Source of the DNA: Nitrosopumilus sp.
GTDB taxonomy: Archaea; Thermoproteota; Nitrososphaeria; Nitrososphaerales; Nitrosopumilaceae
Direction of reading: 5' to 3'
Assembly: GCA_965218785.1 (NCBI GenBank)
Contig: OZ244650.1
Span: 1,152,001 to 1,216,000, forward strand
Length of the DNA stretch: 64,000 nt
Below the pieces are notes generated by a model that was given only the letters and a program-made list of their open reading frames with translations, ran no database searches and was not told the origin of the DNA. Both the position numbers and the translations under genes were made by a program. Position 1 is the stretch's first letter. Every line of letters begins with the position of its first letter. Shown in pieces: positions 25,851 through 35,862 of the stretch.

Positions 25851-27008
25851 ATGTCAGAGGAAATAATAGTGGGGGAATCAGTAGATTTAAAACATATCTT
25901 AGAAAAAGAACCCACGATAGAAGATCGTATTGCAGAAATGAGACCAGATGCTAAAGATGGTAAAGTAGTTGCATTTATCGGAGATTCAGGATGTGGAAAA
26001 ACAGTTGTTTCAGCATTATTAAAACATGCATTATCTAAACATTTTATTCCAAATAGTAAAGGAGAGTGGGAAGCAGTACCAAGTAGTGGTTATGAATTTA
26101 TCAATTCAGTAATTTCTGAAATGAAAAAAGGGAAGTTCCCAGATCAAACATTAGAGGAAGATTATCCAAAATTGATCATAGATGTGTATCATACAAAAGG
26201 AAATACTACAAAAATTAAACTAGTATTGCGAGACATGTCCGGTGAAAATTATACTAAATTATTAAGTACAGAAAATCCTAATTTTGAAGAACAAATGAAT
26301 GCACTACTAGATGATCCAGAAAAAAATGTATATATAATATTTGCAAAAATATATGTGATATTAATTGATTGTTCGCAAAAAGATAATTGGGATGCAGACC
26401 CATCATACATTACATCAACAATAAGTAAACTAAAAGAATTCAAAGAAAAAATACACTGTTATGAAGAAGATAAAAAAATCAATAATCCAATTGCAATAAT
26501 TTTTACTAAAGCAGATAGATTGAAAGAAGCAGATCAAATAAAAACCGCTAAAGAATTAATGAAAGAATATCCAGGTTTAGAATCAAGTCTAAATATCAAT
26601 CAAGATGGCTCTAGAGGTTTCTTCAAAGTTAGTGTAGATTCCAAATTAGAAACATCTCATGAAGCAGAAAAAAGAATTAGAGACATAAAAGAACGATTAG
26701 AAAAGAAATTTTTGTTGAAAAAAAATGCACTTAAAACTACGATGAACATCGCAATAGACAAAGCAATTATAGATGTAGAAAGAAATTCTCTGGAGGAGGA
26801 TCAAACTGAAGAGATGATAAACGTAGCCAAAGAAAAAGCAAAGAATGCAGTTCTTGAAAAATACAAAAAAGAATTATCAGAAGAGATGCCCAAATTAAAA
26901 AATAAAGAAAGGCATTTGATACAAAAATGGAATGTTAAAACCCCCTTAAATTATTCAGAAACAGAATACAATAGATTCATTTCATGGATTTTTGAAAATT
27001 TGTCGTAA
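25851..27008 (+). CDS. TRAFAC-class GTPase of the 'double-GTPase' conflict-system type
   Basis: G1 GDSGCGKT, G2 FPDQT, G3 RDMSGE, G4 FTKAD; coiled-coil insert near the C-terminus. Confidence 0.75.
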   Translation: MSEEIIVGESVDLKHILEKEPTIEDRIAEMRPDAKDGKVVAFIGDSGCGKTVVSALLKHALSKHFIPNSKGEWEAVPSSGYEFINSVISEMKKGKFPDQTLEEDYPKLIIDVYHTKGNTTKIKLVLRDMSGENYTKLLSTENPNFEEQMNALLDDPEKNVYIIFAKIYVILIDCSQKDNWDADPSYITSTISKLKEFKEKIHCYEEDKKINNPIAIIFTKADRLKEADQIKTAKELMKEYPGLESSLNINQDGSRGFFKVSVDSKLETSHEAEKRIRDIKERLEKKFLLKKNALKTTMNIAIDKAIIDVERNSLEEDQTEEMINVAKEKAKNAVLEKYKKELSEEMPKLKNKERHLIQKWNVKTPLNYSETEYNRFISWIFENLS

Positions 27009-27014
27009 TAAATT

Positions 27015-28733
27015 ATGTTAATCATAGAACAATTCATCTATACTAGTGCCAATATAGGAGGAAAAAAAGGTTATCAAATTGTTGCAAAAAGTGATGAAGT
27101 ATCAGATAAAATAATTTCTGAAATAAATCCATATTTGTATCCATTAGGTGTAACTTCCAGTAAATTCATTGAATCCTGTTCTTTGCTTCTACTTGGAAAT
27201 AAAATAACATATTCAAAAATAAAAAATATCGGGATAGGTCATGATGGAAGAAATAATACAATTTACAATCACACATTAATAATGAATGTTGAAGATTTTA
27301 AAAAAATCTTAAACGATACTAGAATTTTAGACCAATATTATATAGAAGACTCTACACTTGAAGGGGAATTACCACAATTAAAAATTGAGGAAGGATCTAG
27401 AGTTAAAGACATCATCGTACCAAATGAAATTAATGAACATATACGTGAAATAATGCATGCACTTTTTAATCAAAAATCAATAGCATTTTGTTCATTAGAT
27501 AATATAGAATTAATTCAAAAAATTCTTAGTCTATTACCGCCATCAATGAGATTAATTTCATTTTCAACATTAGTTGTTCAACCATCTCAACAACCAAAAT
27601 ATCGGTTGATTGGGATTGAAAAATCTTCAAAAATAATATTAAATAACAAATTCACTAGAATAGATTTAGAACAAAACAACACCAAAAATAAACGAATATT
27701 AGATGATTCAATAGATTATTTTGTAGATTTATTAAATTCTCATGATATAAAAAAAATTGAAAAGTTTAACAAACAATTTGAGATGTTATCTGGAAATGAT
27801 TTCAAAACCAAACTAACTGTATTGTTCAATATTAAAGAATTTGAGAAATGTCTCGAAAGACCAAACAGGCAAAATAAATCTAACAAAATAATGGATTTGT
27901 TAATTAATTTTGAACCGGCATCAGCTTCTTCAATATATGATAAAATTAGAAATGATTTATCTTCAAACACAATTCAAAAATACATTGTAGAATTTGAGAT
28001 TCCACAAATTTTAAAGGATTTTAAAATGATTCCAATCAAAAAAAACAATATTGAAAATATGTTCAACAGATTAAGTGATGGAGTCTTAGAATCTAGACTA
28101 AAACTACTATCAAAATTAATGGATAAACGCAAAGAAGATTTTTTGGAATACGGCGCATCTTTAATTATAGATACAAGAAATGCATATTACAATATTATAA
28201 TATACAGAGCATTTGTTGAAAAGGATTATTTACATAAATGTATTTTTGAATCGCTGAATGAAAAAAATCATATTCAAGATTATGTGAGAAGAGGAATTTT
28301 TGAAAAAATGTTTATGCTTTCAGTTAAACACAATCCTAAATTGACATTATCGATTTTAGATCATGATAATTTCATACTAGATGATATGCATGATTCGTTA
28401 TTTTTTAAAAAATTAGTAAAAAATTCATTAAATTTTACTATTGTTAAAATCATCAAAGCAGATATGCTTTTGAGCATATCAAGAAGAATATTTCAAAAAA
28501 TACTCAAACCCACTCAAATAACTAAATCTTCAGGAACTATGGAATTGCAAAATTCGGTTTTAGAGTCCCTTTTAGAAATTGCAGAATTCCTTATAGAAAT
28601 ATTAGAATTGACTTTACAAAATCCAGAAACAAACAACAGTATGCATAATGACATACTTCTGCTAAATGACGAAATCCAACAATTCATTAAAAAAAGAAAG
28701 ATTAATCAACCATTCAGATACTCTTGGTTTTAG
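27015..28733 (+). CDS. GAP1-N2-like (GTPase-associated) domain protein
   Basis: N-terminus IEQFIYTS...GYQIVAKS...G.DGR.N....HTLI; central LLPPSMRLISFST; 6 bp downstream of the GTPase. Confidence 0.65.
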   Translation: MLIIEQFIYTSANIGGKKGYQIVAKSDEVSDKIISEINPYLYPLGVTSSKFIESCSLLLLGNKITYSKIKNIGIGHDGRNNTIYNHTLIMNVEDFKKILNDTRILDQYYIEDSTLEGELPQLKIEEGSRVKDIIVPNEINEHIREIMHALFNQKSIAFCSLDNIELIQKILSLLPPSMRLISFSTLVVQPSQQPKYRLIGIEKSSKIILNNKFTRIDLEQNNTKNKRILDDSIDYFVDLLNSHDIKKIEKFNKQFEMLSGNDFKTKLTVLFNIKEFEKCLERPNRQNKSNKIMDLLINFEPASASSIYDKIRNDLSSNTIQKYIVEFEIPQILKDFKMIPIKKNNIENMFNRLSDGVLESRLKLLSKLMDKRKEDFLEYGASLIIDTRNAYYNIIIYRAFVEKDYLHKCIFESLNEKNHIQDYVRRGIFEKMFMLSVKHNPKLTLSILDHDNFILDDMHDSLFFKKLVKNSLNFTIVKIIKADMLLSISRRIFQKILKPTQITKSSGTMELQNSVLESLLEIAEFLIEILELTLQNPETNNSMHNDILLLNDEIQQFIKKRKINQPFRYSWF

Positions 28734-29620
28734 AAAGAAATATGGCCAGTACTCTTGCTAGAGTTTTAGAACAAAAAGGTAGTGATTTATTGTTAGATAA
28801 TCAAAGATTGTGCAAACATCAAAAAACACTACAAAAAACATTGATCATAACTATCGCTTTGATAATAACAGCAGTATTTTATCCATTAATGAAACTTGAA
28901 TTAATTGAATTTCTAAATGAAATTATTCATCATTGGATAATTGTGTTTGCAATAATTTTTTTGGTAAGTAGTGTAATTATATGGATTAAAACTAAACATA
29001 TTAAGAATAAAGTTTCATCCGTAGATTTAGCTTTTTTATTTTCATATAAAGCATATATGGCATTAGAAGCATATTCAGATCGTTCACAATTTAAATCAAG
29101 ATTAAAAAATTTAGAATATGCAATAGAAAATATCAACAGACTAAGTTACAAAATATCTCTCGGATGGAAAACATTTATCAAATATAATGATATTTTACCT
29201 AATTTTGATAAAAACATGAATACTTTTGTAAATAGTTTAACTGGATTAAAAATAGCATTAAAAAAAGAAACACATAAACCAATTAAAATCCAAGTAGCAT
29301 TAATAGAAGTAATGGAATTTTTAAATAATAATAAAAATAATTTTAAAAAAATTAACAAAGAACTGGAAGAATATAATTTTTTAAATCAAACAACAAGCAT
29401 TAAACAAAAAATTAAAGAATCTATGATGAACGGAAAAAATCTAAAACATACAGTTAGGATATCATTTCTTTTATTAATAAGTATATTTCCAACAATTATA
29501 ATAATATTAATAGATCCAAGTTTCATAGCTAATGCCATAACTATTGGTGGAATTTTTACAGTGATATTATTGGGATCATACGTTGCACCACTATTAAAAA
29601 AACTAGCAATGAGCGAATAA
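28724..29620 (+). CDS. Four-TM membrane protein, third gene of the GTPase operon
   Basis: Two N-terminal and two C-terminal hydrophobic helices around a soluble helical domain. Confidence 0.65.
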   Translation: MVLERNMASTLARVLEQKGSDLLLDNQRLCKHQKTLQKTLIITIALIITAVFYPLMKLELIEFLNEIIHHWIIVFAIIFLVSSVIIWIKTKHIKNKVSSVDLAFLFSYKAYMALEAYSDRSQFKSRLKNLEYAIENINRLSYKISLGWKTFIKYNDILPNFDKNMNTFVNSLTGLKIALKKETHKPIKIQVALIEVMEFLNNNKNNFKKINKELEEYNFLNQTTSIKQKIKESMMNGKNLKHTVRISFLLLISIFPTIIIILIDPSFIANAITIGGIFTVILLGSYVAPLLKKLAMSE

Positions 29621-30309
29621 TTAAAAAATATCTAATTAATCTAATCTCAAAGAGGGTTTTTGTTTTCAAAATCTTCAATTTTTTGTTTTAATTCACTAGC
29701 AGAAAATTTGTGAATGTAATCAACAGTTTCAAATAGATAATGCTTAGGGAATTTTTCTAAAAGGAATAGATGTTACTCTTTTGTTTTTGTACTCTCAAGA
29801 TAATTTTCAAAGATCAGAATGGAACTAGATTTTATATTTCTCCATACTTAATAATTAAAATGATGGTTTTGTAAACGTGGACATGTGATTATATTTTTCC
29901 ATTCGTTAAAAAATGGAATATTGAAAAAATTCTAATTTCCGGTGCTAATACTAGGGCATGCTCAATCATCATTCATACACAACTAATATTTTTTACACTG
30001 TTAAATCTACAAGGTTTTTCAACTGTAGGCTACATTAAATTCTTAGAGACATTTCATATTCTCTCAAAATTCTGCAAATTTAGAGACATTGGATTACAGG
30101 TCTCGACAAGCATAAATTAGATCGAGTGTTAAAAATTATCGTGTAATCCCCTTTGCCTGCAATATTGTGAAAAACAATGACGACTGTATTTGGCATCAGG
30201 TATCAAACAGACATGATTTCATCATAAATTAAGAAAACAGACCCTGATGATAATTAGGCAACAACGCGATCAAGATCATAAATAAATATAATAAAAAACC
30301 ACGGATGAC

Positions 30310-30588
30310 ATGACAAATAAATGGTATCATGTAAGTTATGATTTAACAGAATCGGATAATGAGGATTATAATAATTTAATAGAAAAAATTAAAAAATTTC
30401 CAGGATATACACATATACTAAAATCAAGTTGGATTATTAATTCAAATAAGACATCACTTGAAATAAGAGAATCATTGGTGAATGCTATGAGGAAAAACAT
30501 TAAAATTTTTATCTCTGAAATAGACAAAAACTACGCATATCAGCTAAATAAATCAGATGTTGATTTTCTTCGTGATCAATTGTCTTGA
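30310..30588 (+). CDS. Standalone Cas2-like (ferredoxin-fold) protein
   Basis: YHVSYDL...DYNNLIEKIK...HILKSSWII...EIRESL. Confidence 0.65.
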   Translation: MTNKWYHVSYDLTESDNEDYNNLIEKIKKFPGYTHILKSSWIINSNKTSLEIRESLVNAMRKNIKIFISEIDKNYAYQLNKSDVDFLRDQLS

Positions 30589-30765
30589 CATAATTATATG
30601 AGACTAACACAATTAATTCAGATTTTTAATCAATTTCTCAAATTATTCTAATAAAAAAAGCTAAGGATTTTTGAATGTAGTTACGGTCAGAAAGAATTGT
30701 GGAGGATATACTAATACGATTACTCATACGATTCTTTAGACCTGTTATCTTGGTTACATTGTACT

Positions 30766-30897
30766 GATCAAGACATGAGATAAAATCTGAGATGTTTTAA
30801 TCGGAGCAGACGGTCGGCACGCATAATTTCAGACACTAAATAATTAATATTTCTAAACTCAAATTTAGAAATGTTTTATATTTACTGCCTACAATCA
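30766..30897 (+). repeat. ~130-bp direct repeat, copy 1, with 22-bp palindrome at 30850-30871
   Basis: GATCAAGACATGAGATAAAATC...TTAATCGGAGCAGAC...TTTCTAAACTCAAATTTAGAAA...TATATTTACTGCCT. Confidence 0.85.
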
Positions 30898-30924
30898 GTC
30901 TTGCAGATAAACCACAGTAAATTC

Positions 30925-31236
30925 ATGGATTTTCAAGAATTTTGGAAAATCCTATCAATCGAGCTAAAACATACTAAAAGATTTAAGACTCTGAGACAAA
31001 ATAAGTCACTTGAGACCAGTTGTAGAGATGCCAGTTCCATAGAGGTCACACCTGATTCAACCAGAGAATCAAGGAGAATCCAAATCGAACAATTTCAAGG
31101 AATGTGGTACATTATGAAAAATGAGCCCAGAAGCAAAAGATACGTCAATACCAACCAAAGATACTATTCGTTTTGGAATTCTTCATATATCCGTGCATTG
31201 ATTGATCATATCGTAGCTGATCAAGGCATGAAGTAA
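30925..31236 (+). CDS. Hypothetical protein (103 aa) between repeat copies 1 and 2
   Basis: MDFQEFWK...NSSYIRALIDHIVADQGMK; stop codon lies inside repeat copy 2. Confidence 0.65.
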   Translation: MDFQEFWKILSIELKHTKRFKTLRQNKSLETSCRDASSIEVTPDSTRESRRIQIEQFQGMWYIMKNEPRSKRYVNTNQRYYSFWNSSYIRALIDHIVADQGMK

Positions 31237-31346
31237 AATCAGAGATGTGTTAATCGGAGCAGACATCACGCATAACGACACGTACTAAACAACCAATATT
31301 TCCAAATTCGAGTTTAGAAACATTATATATTTACTGCCTTTAATCA
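31219..31346 (+). repeat. ~130-bp direct repeat, copy 2, palindrome at 31299-31320
   Basis: GATCAAGGCATGAAGTAAAATC...TTTCCAAATTCGAGTTTAGAAA...TATATTTACTGCCT. Confidence 0.85.
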
Positions 31347-31810
31347 TCACATATTCTAAGTTTGAATCGGATTACTTTTCTACCTTCTCCGTTTGAATTT
31401 CTTTCCATATCCGAATAATGTGATTCGTAACACACACGGAATTGATACTCCAAATGATTTTGTTGACGTTTTATAAAATAAAGCATCATCCGACCAACAT
31501 TATGTGATTCCAATATTGCATTATTACGATTCGTTATTTTTTGGTCGCCTAGTCCAGACCCCGTATATGTCAGATATTCGTGATTCTCATCCACCGTATC
31601 GGAATACTGCTCTAGTGTAGGGATTTTAGGAATGGTGGTGATCAAAACAATACATTCGTTGGGAGTTGACGGACGTATCCCCCCAGTATTTTGCACGTCA
31701 AATTTTTCACGTAGATCGTCTTCAGTAAAAACATCGCCACGTTTTGGGATTAGATTTTTCTGTTCTTCACTCAAGTACGTTGACAAACATGGATTTTTTT
31801 TATCTGTCAA
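31340..31810 (-). CDS. Standalone SRA/YDG-like modified-DNA-binding domain protein
   Basis: GGIRPS...VLIT...YSD...LTYTGSGLGDQ...NNAILES. Confidence 0.65.
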   Translation of the reverse strand: MTDKKNPCLSTYLSEEQKNLIPKRGDVFTEDDLREKFDVQNTGGIRPSTPNECIVLITTIPKIPTLEQYSDTVDENHEYLTYTGSGLGDQKITNRNNAILESHNVGRMMLYFIKRQQNHLEYQFRVCYESHYSDMERNSNGEGRKVIRFKLRICDD

Positions 31811-31879
31811 CTCAATATCGTCTCCCCCCCCTATTGTATATAATTAAATCGCTCTACGTCCGAGATTGATTGTATTGTA

Positions 31880-32030
31880 GATGAACAAGTCATGAGATAA
31901 AATCGGAGACATATTAATCCCAGAGTAGAAAATTAACACACATAATCACAGGTACTAAATAACCAATATTTCTAAATTCGAGTTTAGAAACATAATATAT
32001 TTACTACCCATAATCACACATTTTGAGATA
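31880..32030 (+). repeat. ~130-150-bp direct repeat, copy 3, palindrome at 31969-31990
   Basis: CAAGTCATGAGATAAAATC...TTTCTAAATTCGAGTTTAGAAA...TATATTTACTACC. Confidence 0.85.
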
Positions 32031-32052
32031 AAATACTATATCGTCAAGTTTT

Positions 32053-32871
32053 TCATGTACGTGGAGATTTCATGCCCCTTGTTGAAGTACAGTCGTACGC
32101 ATGCTTCAAGCATTGCAGTATCAGATCAAAATTTGCTTCAATGATATCAATACTTCTTTCTTGACCCTCTTGGAAAAACCACCTAACACTACGAATTCTG
32201 TCATCCTTAATGTCAAAAGAATCAGGACAAATTCTGAAACGAATCTCAGAACTTTTTTTATGGCATATTATACCTGAAAATTGTTGATTATTATGCATGC
32301 AAAAATGATAATACCATGATTTGACAGCTAGAGGATAGGAATCAGAGCCAAATTTTGAATCTATTGCAGATATTAATTTTTCAATATTTTTCCTGTTCTG
32401 TATAGTCGTCCAGCCTAACTTGTACTTCCAATCGCTAGACACATTTCCACGTTCTTGTTTATTAGAATTTTTACTGCCAGTAGAAATAGATGATTTTGAG
32501 GGTTTTTTGGAATCAAATGTGTATTGTTTTCCAAAGTCATCATACTCCTTATGACAATCCCGGCACAAAAACATGAAAACGTCTTTGATGGGCATATGCA
32601 ATTCCTTTATCTCGTTGAATAGTTTGTCAACATCTTCAACGACATATACGTCACCGTTCTTTGAGTATTTTTCAAGTGCCTTCCACATCAGAGTCTTTCG
32701 ATCCATACCATGCTTGTGTGCTGCATCAAGAGAAGAGAAGGTTTTACCACATCTTTGACATCTATTACCTAGGGTATTCTTCTCAGATTTGGTCATAATT
32801 GCAACAATATTTCTGACTTTTGGACCAAAAAGGGCATTGAATTCATCACATGTCCCTTCAAAACGAACCAT
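32053..32871 (-). CDS. HNH-like nuclease with a C-terminal (DUF5655-like) domain
   Basis: CQRC...LDAAH...LCRDCHKEYD; Ser/Lys linker; C-terminal alpha/beta domain ending LKHAYD. Confidence 0.6.
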   Translation of the reverse strand: MVRFEGTCDEFNALFGPKVRNIVAIMTKSEKNTLGNRCQRCGKTFSSLDAAHKHGMDRKTLMWKALEKYSKNGDVYVVEDVDKLFNEIKELHMPIKDVFMFLCRDCHKEYDDFGKQYTFDSKKPSKSSISTGSKNSNKQERGNVSSDWKYKLGWTTIQNRKNIEKLISAIDSKFGSDSYPLAVKSWYYHFCMHNNQQFSGIICHKKSSEIRFRICPDSFDIKDDRIRSVRWFFQEGQERSIDIIEANFDLILQCLKHAYDCTSTRGMKSPRT

Positions 32872-33896
32872 AACTAACGTTAAAGGCGCAGTATAAAAAG
32901 ATCAACCATAGAACTTGCCAAAAACTTTTTTCCTGAAAACTCTTTTCTTCTGGAAAACTTTTTCAAAACTTTACAAAAACTTTTTTCTTCTGGAAAACCT
33001 TTCTCCAAAAGATCTCCAAACAAAATACTCATCCACGCCTGAAAGCTAAACCCCCTACACAAAACCACACTCACAGTCACAACACCATATTTTCAAAAAC
33101 CACCAATTACCGGGGGGGTTTAACACCCGTGCCTGCCCACAAAAGCCAACCCCCAAAACACCCCGCTAGCTCAGATAAACATGTATGATCTTTTATTGTT
33201 GTGCGTAAAAGCTAAACCCCATAATTTTTGTAAAAAAATAAAGAATTGATAGTCAAGCTACGGATTGTAATGCATGAAACTCCTGCAAGACAGGATTGAC
33301 AGATGACATACACCAACAATTGTTACAGTATACATGCCGGCATCAATGTAAGTAATCACAACTGATTTTTTTTGGTTGTAATTAATAGTCAGCAGGTATC
33401 AACTACACAAATCACCACCATTACCTGGCATAGATTGCCCGTACTACGGCATCCTGGCCATCATTAAATGACAGACAGCAGTTGCAACATAGTAATGCCT
33501 ACTCGAATAGACCAGCCAATGCAAACCCGCATCATAACTTAATCCAACGTCTGGCAACAAGTAAAGCCGCCTGAACCCATAAAACACCTTGGAAACTATA
33601 AAACCGGATTTATCATCAATTCAACTCAATATCCAATAGGCACCCAAGAAAATTTTGCCATAATCACCGAAAAGCACCACAACGGCCAGAAGATCATAAA
33701 ATCATGAAAATACAGTTATGGATCACTACCATGGGTCATAATCCAACATGCCGTGTAAATATGCATAAAATCTGCGAAAATTTTACTAAAAACTGCATAT
33801 CACCACATCCCCCCCACACACCCACCTCTGCCATTTTTGCACTGATCTGACTGCCCGTACCGTTTCAACTATATACTAAAAAATCAGGGAAAAAGC

Positions 33897-34382
33897 ATGG
33901 TACGACTCGTGATGGTGATCCTTTTTGGCGCAGTAATAGGATCCATGGCAATAGCGTTATTTGCATACACGCAATACCAAACAAACTACATTACATCAGT
34001 TGCAGGCCAGACTGTAACAGTCGGACCAGTAGAATACGTGATCACCTTTGATGGAACCCATGCCGGAAGCGAGTCAGTTACCCCGGAAAACGTCTTTGTA
34101 AAGATCGGAATTACCGCAAAAAACGTATCCAGCGAAGAAACCCTGATGACTGGAGGGCAGTTTTACTTTGTCGATGAAAACGATAAAAAACACAGGGCCG
34201 TTTACGGTGAATTTTCTGCAAAAGACCTGTATGAGGAATCCTTACAGCCAGATGAACCAATTGAGAGGACGACACAGTTTGATGTTCCATTTGATAAAGA
34301 ACAACAGTACGAAATAATCATAAGACCGCAAAAAATGCAATCAACACTCGATACTGCGGTTATTTGTATAACAAATTGCTGA
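33897..34382 (+). CDS. DUF4352-domain membrane-anchored protein
   Basis: N-terminal TM; FVKIGITAKN...LQPDE...FDVP. Confidence 0.75.
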   Translation: MVRLVMVILFGAVIGSMAIALFAYTQYQTNYITSVAGQTVTVGPVEYVITFDGTHAGSESVTPENVFVKIGITAKNVSSEETLMTGGQFYFVDENDKKHRAVYGEFSAKDLYEESLQPDEPIERTTQFDVPFDKEQQYEIIIRPQKMQSTLDTAVICITNC

Positions 34383-34483
34383 TCGCAAATTTACAAAATA
34401 AAAAAAAGTGTCAAATTTTACTATAAGTTGGGCAATTAAGTATGACCTTTGCTATATAACATCTATAACTTTTGGAAAAAGTC

Positions 34484-34879
34484 ATGGCAATATCTAAAGC
34501 CAAAAGAGCAGAAGCTGCAAAGAAAGGCGCAAGAACTCGCAAGAGGAATGCTGCCCGAAAAGCAGCTGATGCGGCAAAAGCATCGGGAACTCGTAAGAGA
34601 CGTGCAGCGGCAAAAAGAGCAGCCCCATCTCGAAAGAGAGCAGGCAGCACACGCCGTGCAGCTCCCAAGAGAAAGTCTGCAGCAAAGCGCAAGGCGGCAC
34701 CAAGAAGAAAGTCCGCAGCAAAGCGTAAAGCAGCACCAAGACGCAAGGCGGCACCAAGACGCCGTGCAGCTCCCAAGAGAAAGTCTGCAGCAAAGCGCAA
34801 GGCGGCACCAAAAAGAAAGGCGGCGCCAAGACGCAAAGCAGCACCAAAAAGAAAGGCAGCTAAACGAAGAAAACGTTAA
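34484..34879 (+). CDS. Histone H1/Hc2-like Lys/Arg/Ala-rich basic protein
   Basis: Repeated AAPKRK/SAAKRK units; ATG at 34484; T-rich terminator after the stop. Confidence 0.75.
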   Translation: MAISKAKRAEAAKKGARTRKRNAARKAADAAKASGTRKRRAAAKRAAPSRKRAGSTRRAAPKRKSAAKRKAAPRRKSAAKRKAAPRRKAAPRRRAAPKRKSAAKRKAAPKRKAAPRRKAAPKRKAAKRRKR

Positions 34880-34908
34880 GCTGTCTTTATTTTTTTATTT
34901 ATTAATCA

Positions 34909-34930
34909 TTTCTAAACTCGAGTTTAGAAA
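34909..34930. repeat. Perfect 22-bp palindrome between convergent genes
   Basis: TTTCTAAACTCGAGTTTAGAAA; same motif as inside the 30.8-32.0 kb repeats. Confidence 0.85.
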
Positions 34931-34939
34931 CATTGAAAC

Positions 34940-35356
34940 CTACTCGCTGGTTTTTAATTCAGGCATGACAAAAACCCTGTCTGGTTTGATTTTTAGAATC
35001 ACCCGCCTCTCATCATCGCGTCTAAACGGATAATGCAGGCGATTCAGGTATTTTTGTGTGAGTTTGTCTGCATGTTTGTAATCGTAATCAGGGATCAGCT
35101 CCTCAACTGTTCCGCGAATTGTCGCCATATCAAGCGGATCGTCTTTTGATACTACAGATACTGCAACGCGCGGATCGCGTAGGACGTTTTTGTGTTTTAT
35201 CCGTCCCTCGGCCGTGTTTACCATCACGTACCCGTCATCGTAGTTTGCCCAGACTGGGGAGACCTGTGGGGAGCCATCCCTCATCACCGTGGCAATAAAA
35301 ACAAGGTTTCGATCAGAAAACAGCCGTATTGCCTTTTCATCCATCATCGTTATCAT
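34940..35356 (-). CDS. PPOX-class F420-dependent oxidoreductase
   Basis: ATVMRDGSPQVSPVW...KNVLRDPRVAVSV. Confidence 0.9.
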   Translation of the reverse strand: MITMMDEKAIRLFSDRNLVFIATVMRDGSPQVSPVWANYDDGYVMVNTAEGRIKHKNVLRDPRVAVSVVSKDDPLDMATIRGTVEELIPDYDYKHADKLTQKYLNRLHYPFRRDDERRVILKIKPDRVFVMPELKTSE

Positions 35357-35862
35357 CAGCTGCTGCCAGACTTTTCAAGAACATTAGTCATTGCCCGGTT
35401 CATAATCTCCATTACGAGATACTGGGAATAATCCTCAGATCTTTTGTTGTTCTTGGATTTGCCAGTCTTGGGTGTCAGATTTTTGAGGATCTTTTCAATC
35501 TTGACTGACGTATTGTCGATCACCTTTGAGTATTTTGAATCAAAATCCTCCGGAGTCTGAAAACCCAGCAGTTTGGTGGACGTGCCATAAAATTTTGTTA
35601 TCGCGCCACGGGATTCCTCGATTTTGACGATTTCAATCAGTCCGGAGACCTTTAGAATTTCCAGGTGGTGGCGGATTGTTGTGAGGGCCTTTGTGTGCCC
35701 TGCCTTTTTTAGAGCCTCGGAGATCTGCTCGGCAGAAAGCGCCTGGTGGTATAAAATTTCCACGGTCTTGGCCCTTATGGGATCTTCAATTGCACGCGCA
35801 TGATCCAGACTGGTAGTAACGATGCGGTTTACCTTGATTGGTTTTTCTAGTAATGTTGACAT
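35356..35862 (-). CDS. ArsR-family winged-helix transcriptional regulator
   Basis: EDPIRAKTVEIL...TTIRHHLEILK..GLI. Confidence 0.85.
   Translation of the reverse strand: MSTLLEKPIKVNRIVTTSLDHARAIEDPIRAKTVEILYHQALSAEQISEALKKAGHTKALTTIRHHLEILKVSGLIEIVKIEESRGAITKFYGTSTKLLGFQTPEDFDSKYSKVIDNTSVKIEKILKNLTPKTGKSKNNKRSEDYSQYLVMEIMNRAMTNVLEKSGSS

Follow-up and report, generated by a model that had tools for sequence, protein, structure and literature searches.

Direct repeats around a putative split restriction gene in Nitrosopumilus carry a family-wide 28-bp palindrome

The locus described here lies in a 64,000-nucleotide (nt) stretch of the genome of Nitrosopumilus sp. (GenBank assembly GCA_965218785.1, contig OZ244650.1, positions 1,152,001 to 1,216,000 of the forward strand), which we call the window and whose positions are used below unless genome coordinates (C1) are given; the whole source genome (G000) comprises 1.99 Mb. 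Within the window, three direct repeats (R1, R2, and R3) of about 150-165 nt alternate with a gene for a 103-amino acid (aa) protein (gene103), an open reading frame (ORF) with an SRA fold, and an ORF with an HNH-like nuclease module, and each repeat carries a 28-bp palindrome, hereafter PAL. The initial annotation had described such a repeat-gene layout, with a dyad and a trailing sequence in each repeat, and had read it as an integron-like or recombination-driven gene-capture array. Local alignment and a 22-mer scan bear out the layout, and the repeats are real, albeit longer than the ~130 bp that had been proposed.

Repeat extents and pairwise identities were obtained by local alignment, and outer limits are given in brackets after the aligned core. 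On the plus strand, R1 occupies 30750-30897 (30750-30911), R2 31200-31346 (31200-31355), and R3 31864-32016 (31864-32032), with identities of 81% for R1/R2, 83% for R2/R3, and 77% for R1/R3. From 5' to 3', each repeat is made up of the last 12-13 codons of a gene103-type reading frame, a 3' untranslated region (UTR), PAL, and ~25 nt with TATATTTACT, which stands 3' of the dyad in all of R1, R2, and R3; an outer dyad around PAL widens the symmetry to ~66 nt. The peptide tails reported earlier at the repeat starts (IVADQGMK*, ..DQDMR*, and IVDEQVMR*) are as described. The tail is intact in R2, which is the native convergent junction of gene103 (intact tail and UTR), PAL, and the 3' end of the SRA ORF, and it is decayed in R1 (with a 1-nt deletion) and in R3, both of which run through UTR and PAL into a right flank. 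PAL lies at 30847-30874 in R1 (differing from the family consensus at 2 positions, of which one is in the spacer), at 31296-31323 in R2 (1 difference, in the left arm), and at 31966-31993 in R3 (equal to the consensus). The PAL cores in R1-R3 therefore retain 26-28 of 28 consensus positions while their flanks decay, and these flanks are similar to the flank of one of the PAL copies of relatives, PAL(B), which is introduced below.

A search with R2 against the whole genome returned R1, R2, and R3 as the only full copies. No copies outside the array locus were found in the genome, in a family comparison set of 300 other Nitrosopumilaceae genomes, or in exact-match contig scans. In particular, a 31-nt pattern from the left part of the unit had 0 exact matches in metagenome_contigs and genome_contigs, scans that diverged copies could escape. 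The full repeat unit is present in 0 of the 300 family genomes and in 1 of 150 further genus genomes (G402, which has the same coordinates as the L127 record discussed below). A further gene103 remnant before R1 was not significant (score of 28 versus a shuffle maximum of 30), no alignment for a fourth repeat beyond the HNH gene rose above shuffle level, and Rfam yielded no match at E<=1 over 29500-35500. Over 30700-32100, the attC core pattern GTTRRRY is absent and the only RYYYAAC lies inside gene103, and single-strand folding, which the initial annotation had recommended as a check, gave the PAL hairpin only (z of -0.3 to -2.1). Where a miniature inverted-repeat transposable element would have terminal inverted repeats and a target-site duplication, inspection by eye around R3 showed no more than ends that resemble each other imperfectly over 6-8 nt and a direct repeat of 8 nt; excising the stretch between that 8-nt repeat leaves the reading frame unrestored.

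The only plus-strand gene of the array, gene103 (30925-31236), is a sporadic accessory gene. Its protein matched no family in Pfam, NCBIfam, PADLOC, PHROGs, or a protein atlas, and 37 of the 300 family genomes have a homologue. Comparison of the homologues' tails showed that the C-terminal tail is native to the gene. No PAL was found near the homologues, either in 19 fetched loci or in 6 further loci of the genus. In G259, a run of 13 C residues lies directly 3' of the stop codon of the gene103 homologue (L044, 1810-1822).

The two minus-strand ORFs had been described as unrelated genes that replaced the bodies of copied gene103 units, one of them a standalone SRA-like reader. They correspond to the two halves of a single gene. 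The SRA-fold ORF (31340-31810, 156 aa, TTG start) matches residues 289-444 of the 444-aa protein P0006 with 85% identity, and the second ORF (32053-32871, 272 aa), which encodes an HNH-like N-terminal module and a middle domain (X) and ends in ..KSPRT*, matches residues 1-284 with 76% identity; in P0006, both are fused, with four residues between the halves. Here they are separated by 242 nt (31811-32052) consisting of a run of eight C residues, 41 nt of no assigned origin, R3, and 20 nt, and ahead of the SRA ORF start the frame continues open through linker residues (..DDIE). The C8 run itself, at 31823-31830, sits at the left junction of this stretch; together with the C13 run in G259, it is a second case of homopolymer C beside gene103-type sequence. 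Judged by the fused relative, the SRA-like and HNH-like ORFs are evidently one gene that R3 has split in this genome. An 11.6-kb contig from ENA encodes the same split trio (P0025, P0002, and P0005) with 80-94% protein identity, and both ORF halves are intact in the two lineages.

Assignment of the SRA ORF is by fold. Its structure model (predicted local distance difference test, pLDDT, of 83.7) had ScoMcrA SRA (5zmn_A) as best Foldseek match (E of 1.3e-8, TMq of 0.62), followed by MspJI, SUVH5, AspBHI, LpnPI, and UHRF1; 48 PDB chains matched at E<=1e-3, and among the matches listed all are SRA domains. At the sequence level, the Pfam family SAD_SRA stayed below its cut-off, there was a weak match to ScoMcrA, RE_AspBHI_N weakly matched 4 of 9 aligned members, PADLOC mREase_IV matched weakly, and PF26348 is the precomputed family on the SRA proteins. 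In the HNH module, the residues C..C, H, H, and C..CH are invariant and form an HNH-like pattern (CxxC..H..CxxCH). The top six VIA-align matches of the HNH-X model (pLDDT of 91.4) are HNH-type nucleases, with EcoKMcrA and TagI among the best, at Z-scores of only 4.7-6.5, and the model had no Foldseek match at E<=0.001 and no match to Pfam HNH. A whole-library search revealed that the three modules, HNH, X, and SRA, each also occur alone or in other fusions: HNH and SRA are joined without X in P0016 and P0021, and reader and nuclease form one polypeptide in P0006, P0016, and P0021. Of the cargo as first described, the 103-aa protein without a family, the SRA fold, and an HNH assignment by motif and middling fold matches stand, and the view of the two minus-strand ORFs as unrelated genes does not. 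Based on sequence and structure models, the cargo is a putative modular, type IV-like, modification-dependent restriction gene together with one small gene of no family, and not three independent cassettes.

In the related genome used for comparison, a Nitrosopumilus metagenome-assembled chromosome (OZ244579.1, handles G301 and L127), the cargo differs. Its order is repeat, gene103, repeat, HNH-X, in the same core-side neighborhood, with the SRA part and one repeat absent and with three PAL copies only in the whole genome. The repeat that follows gene103 there is R2-like up to its right edge and R3-like beyond. The difference amounts to a 670-nt segment (31347-32016; SRA ORF, linker, and R3) that is bounded by TAATCA, present here, and absent in G301. 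Close relatives thus differ in whether they have the SRA module plus one repeat, which behave as one unit. Cargo does vary, and the identical cargo in all relatives that would have refuted the initial reading is not what is seen. The full unit was found in one other genome only. The HNH-X protein of G301 ends in KSPRT*, as it does here and unlike the fused form, and this shared ending mildly favors an order in which a fused gene was split by R3 and the SRA part was then lost. Homology between G000 and G301 stops at 30758, at the left edge of R1, and since synteny ends there, R1 marks the boundary of an island.

Read contigs from three public runs (X1-X3, from two studies), which are short and from mixed strains, include the form seen here, a G301-like form, and an HNH+SRA form. 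Records spanning 31147-31369 and 31784-31971 come from diverged strains and show the same junctions. Two read joints match the G301-like form, and the joint 31818>32488 matches the P0016-type HNH+SRA arrangement. The joints 30811>31932 and 32005>30912 may be either recombination products or repeat variants of other strains; excised circles had been suggested as a check, and with joints this ambiguous in short mixed-strain contigs, no circle is claimed.

The palindrome proved far more widespread than the repeats. Its consensus, ATRTTTCTAAA-YTCGAR-TTTAGAAAYAT, comprises 28 bp in an 11-6-11 layout. With <=3 mismatches, the 22-mer core occurs at 4 places in the window (0 in 100 shuffles) and nowhere else in the genome; the fourth, near-perfect copy, at 34906-34933, was absent from the initial annotation. 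When a 151-nt repeat was used as the query, 226 of the 300 other family genomes matched, in the PAL part only (query ~73-150). The 28-mer consensus (<=3 mismatches) is found in 271 of the 300 genomes and in 27 of 27 genera, with 0 matches for the reversed pattern used as a control, and in 188 of 195 high-quality family genomes when G000 is counted; these tallies take in seven unpublished genomes (G077, G092, G093, G206, G228, G258, and G260), none of which alone carries a claim. Copy number ranges from 1 to 6 per genome, mostly 3-4, in a single small cluster with positions conserved across genera.

In relatives, the copies occupy fixed places in one locus of about 4-5 kb (<=6 kb). The ancestral order begins with a ribosomal-protein operon, tRNA-Asn, PAL(D), 43 nt, PAL(C), a Zn-ribbon gene with a small membrane gene, and PAL(B), and continues with DUF2299, a variable stretch, DUF4352, a K/A-rich gene, PAL(A), a PNPOx-like gene, an ArsR-type regulator, and purine genes. 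The fourth copy in the window is PAL(A); it is ancestral and syntenic and lies where the K/A-rich and PNPOx-like genes face each other with their 3' ends. In all relatives examined, the genes on either side of PAL(A) converge on it and PAL(D) directly adjoins the tRNA-Asn 3' end, and because of these two placements PAL is not simply a promoter element. The 135-aa Lys/Ala-rich, histone-H1-like protein (34472-34879) neighbors PAL(A) in all relatives examined as well; this protein and an 82-aa Zn-ribbon protein, whose gene stands between PAL(C) and PAL(B), are candidate DNA-binding partners of PAL. Local arrangements vary in some genomes: two PAL copies with ~65 nt in common flank a 249-aa membrane gene in G169 (L076, 4525-8635), PAL doublets lie on either side of the Zn-ribbon module in G157 (L077, 36-852), and three copies with a 71-nt period lie beside type I restriction-like ORFs in G274 (L070, 7528-7697).

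The pairing of PAL arms was assessed in 40 distinct host variants out of 98 sites in fetched loci. At the three variable mirrored positions, Watson-Crick pairs number 13, 24, and 21, compared with 16.4, 22.9, and 21.0 expected under independence. Since these positions pair no more often than independence predicts, what is selected appears to be the sequence of each half-site rather than a hairpin, and a hairpin, terminator, or attC reading of PAL was rejected, as arm changes are uncompensated. The central TCGA is 97-100% conserved, on par with the arms. Strict conservation, independent half-sites, and non-promoter contexts suggest that PAL is a double-stranded site for a symmetric DNA-binding protein.

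The position of the cluster on the chromosome is equally constant. With the best cdc6 match taken as an origin proxy, this match lies at 8 kb in G000 and the array at 1.183 Mb, i.e., 0.41 of the circle apart; the distance is 0.43-0.49 in ten further genomes and likewise 0.43-0.49 in 18 complete genomes from eleven other genera. Overall, all 29 genomes compared (13 genera, 1.2-2.7 Mb) have the PAL cluster at 0.41-0.49 of the circle from cdc6. This is consistent, but most sizes are rounded and the genomes are syntenic, so that these do not represent 29 independent tests. The reading of PAL as an origin (origin recognition box) was rejected, the sole strong cdc6 match being at C1:8 kb, 1.17 Mb from the array. 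PAL shares with archaeal dif, as defined in PMC2958812, the 11-6-11 layout, intergenic placement, conservation, and terminus location. The main text of that paper mentions Thaumarchaeota, Nitrosopumilus, and Cenarchaeum 0 times, and titles and abstracts of the literature yielded no description of this palindrome or of a dif site in Nitrosopumilaceae. These observations favor a protein-bound terminus site over a hairpin, attC, or an ordinary operator, and PAL most likely has a role at the chromosomal terminus, in dimer resolution or another recombination or termination function.

A recombinase common to the PAL-bearing genomes was not recognized. The initial annotation had noted that the window lacks an integrase, and it indeed contains no PF00589 match; the two matches in the genome are at C1:374 kb and C1:72 kb. 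On the archaeal XerA model, with its cut-off of 220, the main tyrosine recombinase of G000 reaches 62.5 bits, and only 30 of 120 high-quality family genomes have a member of its family, often in multiple copies like an element-borne integrase. This 409-aa protein (L064, C1:373,755-374,981) has a C-terminal Zn-ribbon, adjoins an actin-like gene, and, given its sporadic multi-copy family, is probably the integrase of another mobile element. Among five complete PAL-bearing genomes, G229 has no PF00589 match and G048 has a broken fragment with a stop (E of 0.0018), and the serine recombinase family PF00239 was found in 0 of 11 genomes. IntI was not found either: with a cut-off of 265 bits for the NCBIfam integron-integrase model, no gene of the genome exceeds 27.7 bits, and the gene with that score lies 800 kb away.

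PAL also occurs in viral sequences. The exact 22-mer is present in 47 IMG/VR contigs (L080-L126) of 4,082-4,751 nt, in one copy each and, in every contig, midway between two divergent gene starts; 6 of the 47 have terminal redundancy, as in circular genomes. Each of these contigs encodes 8-11 small proteins, none of which resembles a Pfam or PHROG family above noise, with no integrase or Rep recognized among them, and tblastn revealed no similarity to gene103, the SRA ORF, or the HNH ORF. One viral protein was searched in 301 family genomes and found in 0, a weak result that lacks a positive control.

In G000, the ancestral locus has been greatly enlarged. The distance from tRNA-Asn to PAL(A) is 95 kb, compared with <=5 kb in relatives, and the inserted DNA has a guanine-plus-cytosine (GC) content of 28-41% against 40.6% for the genome. 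Synteny mapping places tRNA-Asn at C1:1,091,852, the Zn-ribbon pair at 1,099,783, an inverted DUF2299 at 1,120,849, the array at 1,182,750-1,184,016, and PAL(A) at 1,186,909. The ancestral PAL(B), PAL(C), and PAL(D) have been lost. Foreign DNA begins right at the 3' end of tRNA-Asn, where PAL(D) would be expected, and PAL(C) persists as its last 7 nt before the Zn-ribbon gene, the break lying inside the right arm. Despite these losses, the PAL total has been kept at the usual 4, which suggests selection on copy number.

We consider it probable that the array arose by local double duplication of the native junction between gene103, PAL, and the restriction gene, with one copy placed in the restriction-gene linker, after which the direct repeats let the SRA module come and go. 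The native unit would be R2, the convergent junction of gene103 and the type IV-like restriction gene. This junction may have been copied locally twice, giving R1 upstream of gene103 and R3 in the interdomain linker, where, by comparison with the fused relative, it splits the restriction gene into the HNH-X ORF and the SRA ORF. Because R2 and R3 are direct repeats, the SRA module and one repeat could then be present or absent as a unit. The array would form the core-side edge of a ~92-kb island that enlarged a conserved replication-terminus locus, and the terminus role of PAL would keep 3-4 copies in one cluster, a site that the small circular viruses may borrow.

Several points weigh against local duplication. 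The duplication step is inferred, and the function of PAL wholly so. R1 and R3 have a common left boundary, 12-13 codons into the gene103 tail, which fits a discrete copied unit better than independent decay. The 670-nt indel ends at the repeat edge (TAATCA) and not at PAL, with no usable homology for ordinary homologous recombination. The direction of change is read from KSPRT* alone, in genomes diverged by 16-22%, and is not secure. Finally, hints of site-specific events come from the viral PAL and from the breaks that this genome shows within or next to its former PAL sites.

These last points lead to a reading that we hold to be unlikely but that must be weighed, in which a host recombinase of an unrecognized kind integrates PAL-bearing circles (gene103 and the SRA module) and so builds the array and the island, in the manner of dif modules or integrative mobile elements exploiting Xer (IMEX). 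The dif-like 11-6-11 layout at the terminus (PMC2958812) would suit such a site, and so would the single PAL in each of the 47 apparently circular viral contigs (4.1-4.8 kb), in which neither an integrase nor a Rep family was recognized. PAL-flanked modules differ among genera, with local PAL duplications in G169, G157, and G274; the module and one repeat form an indel between relatives; foreign DNA starts from the PAL(D) site, and PAL(C) is cut in its right arm; and the common left boundary of R1 and R3 and the indel end at the repeat edge also speak for it. The repeats, however, share ~150 nt, far beyond duplication of a core site, the indel boundary lies at the repeat edge and thus outside PAL, and the former PAL(C) and PAL(D) junctions are not clean hybrids. 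Nor was a universal Xer or serine recombinase found, as the bit score, the 30/120 distribution, the empty G229, and the 0/11 count for PF00239 given above indicate. The TCGA center is conserved to 97-100%, unlike a typical Xer spacer, 3-4 copies are stably kept across genera, and the left part of the unit had 0 exact matches in the metagenome and species-genome collections. In a bolder form, Nitrosopumilaceae, which lack a universal Xer or serine recombinase, would use an enzyme of an unrecognized kind to resolve or recombine the chromosome at PAL, viruses and module capture would draw on the same site, and array and island would be its products; this seems to us rather unlikely.

Local duplication could also have been a single, inconsequential event. 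We think it quite unlikely that the array is a one-off, decaying local triplication in which the repeats are scars and the SRA difference is one accidental deletion. The repeats are indeed old (77-83% identity), the full unit occurs in one other genome only (0/300 in the family and 1/150 in the genus, G402), the junctions are unchanged in diverged strains, and gene103 homologues elsewhere lack PAL (0/19 and 0/6 loci). Yet the PAL cores remain at 26-28 of 28 positions while the flanks decay, the total of 4 PAL copies retained after the ancestral losses suggests copy-number selection, and both ORF halves are intact in two lineages.

It is doubtful, more so than the foregoing, that PAL is an operator of a transcription factor, overlapping a TFB-recognition element (BRE)/TATA-like sequence, and that the repeats are promoter/terminator modules for gene103 and, after the split, for the SRA ORF. 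At PAL(B), PAL(C), and R1, a gene does start ~50-90 nt downstream of the palindrome, and in the viral contigs PAL lies midway between divergent starts; an AT-rich TATA-like sequence abuts it, and an ArsR-type regulator is a conserved neighbor. Against this stand PAL(A) between convergent 3' ends and PAL(D) at the tRNA-Asn 3' end in all relatives examined, and a regulon site would not be expected in a single locus of <=6 kb always opposite cdc6.

A true integron, in which IntI inserts attC-flanked cassettes, has practically no chance of being correct: apart from the superficial repeat-gene-repeat layout, neither IntI nor attC cores were found, the only fold is that of a short, family-wide palindrome without pairing covariation, the genes are in mixed orientation (one on the plus strand and two ORFs on the minus strand), and two of the supposed cassettes are one gene. 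What survives of the proposed capture of genes against mobile genetic elements is that repeats bracket a module that is gained or lost and that the cargo is of defense type; the integron mechanism does not.

The array sits at the core-side edge of a low-GC accessory island that spans ~92 kb (C1:1,092,000-1,184,000, with 1-30749 as its share of the window) and is rich in defense-type genes. Its cargo in the window includes a helicase, an SbcCD/Lamassu-like ATPase, a methylase, DUF5131, an HNH gene, and a double-GTPase/GAP1 set. The defense-type genes at 1144-22052 comprise a DEAD/MrfA-Zn helicase (SngC/BrxH-like), a GHKL ATPase, an Eco57I/N6 methylase, and DUF5131 (PDC-M41B), along with a pair of AAA_23 and SbcC-Walker-B ATPases with a metallophosphoesterase. 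At 25851-29620, where GC content falls to 25-27%, a double-GTPase (DO-GTPase1/2), a GAP1-N2 protein of 572 aa, and a 298-aa membrane protein together look like a GTPase-centered conflict system. Further out, at C1:1,091,927-1,121,480 (L074 and L075), insertions of 8 kb and 21 kb set apart the Zn-ribbon/membrane pair and DUF2299. The tRNA-Asn gene was considered as the attachment site of the island and rejected, no tRNA repeat longer than 11 nt being present in the next 98 kb.

On the other side of the array, the ~1 kb at 32872-33896, between the HNH-X gene and DUF4352, holds no convincing gene; direct repeats of 21-27 nt with 40- and 55-nt spacing lie at 32912-33002. Because 32484-33235 is 82% identical to the related genome G301, this region may be conserved noncoding DNA or an unrecognized gene. 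The conserved genes of the terminus locus follow: DUF4352 (33897-34382, plus strand), the K/A-rich protein gene (34472-34879, plus), the PNPOx-like gene (34940-35356, minus), and the gene for an ArsR-type helix-turn-helix protein (35356-35862, minus), with PAL(A) between the second and third.

The analysis removes a false integron lead in archaea and suggests that the reader domain of one modular type IV-like gene has become a separable unit. Ammonia-oxidizing archaea keep a cluster of a 28-bp palindrome opposite the origin, which they have in common with tiny circular viruses, and several complete genomes that bear it have no recognizable site-specific recombinase (by PF00589, none in G229 and a fragment in G048). 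Chromosome completion and separation in these archaea may thus become directly testable via PAL, and the terminus locus here acts as a hotspot where ~90 kb of defense-rich DNA has gathered.

Compared with known systems, the locus resembles integron arrays in that short repeats alternate with single small genes, and it differs from them in every defining feature tested. The putative restriction gene is like the type IV SRA-HNH enzymes (ScoMcrA, TagI, and EcoKMcrA, with the readers of MspJI and AspBHI) in its SRA fold and in an HNH-type motif with middling fold scores; it differs in its order of HNH, X, and SRA and in being split by 242 nt. PAL resembles Xer/dif sites and the IMEX and pdif modules of Acinetobacter plasmids in being a conserved, intergenic, 28-bp 11-6-11 site opposite the origin (archaeal definition in PMC2958812). 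Small modules bracketed by copies and small integrase-less circular replicons with one copy are further likenesses to dif modules. Xer/dif systems differ in that they have one site per chromosome unless an element is integrated, compared with a stable 3-4 copies of PAL, and no Xer-type or serine recombinase is common to the PAL genomes. Moreover, the PAL center is as conserved as the arms, the repeats measure ~150 nt, the indel ends outside the core, and an integrated virus was seen in 0 of 301 family genomes (one viral protein, no positive control). In sites of the parS/Ter type, a strictly conserved palindrome is likewise present in a few copies that gather at one pole of the replication map; no ParB, Tus, or RTP counterpart was identified for PAL, though no search was directed at one. 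PAL is alike in forming clustered palindromes at one pole, which in its case is the terminus and not the origin.

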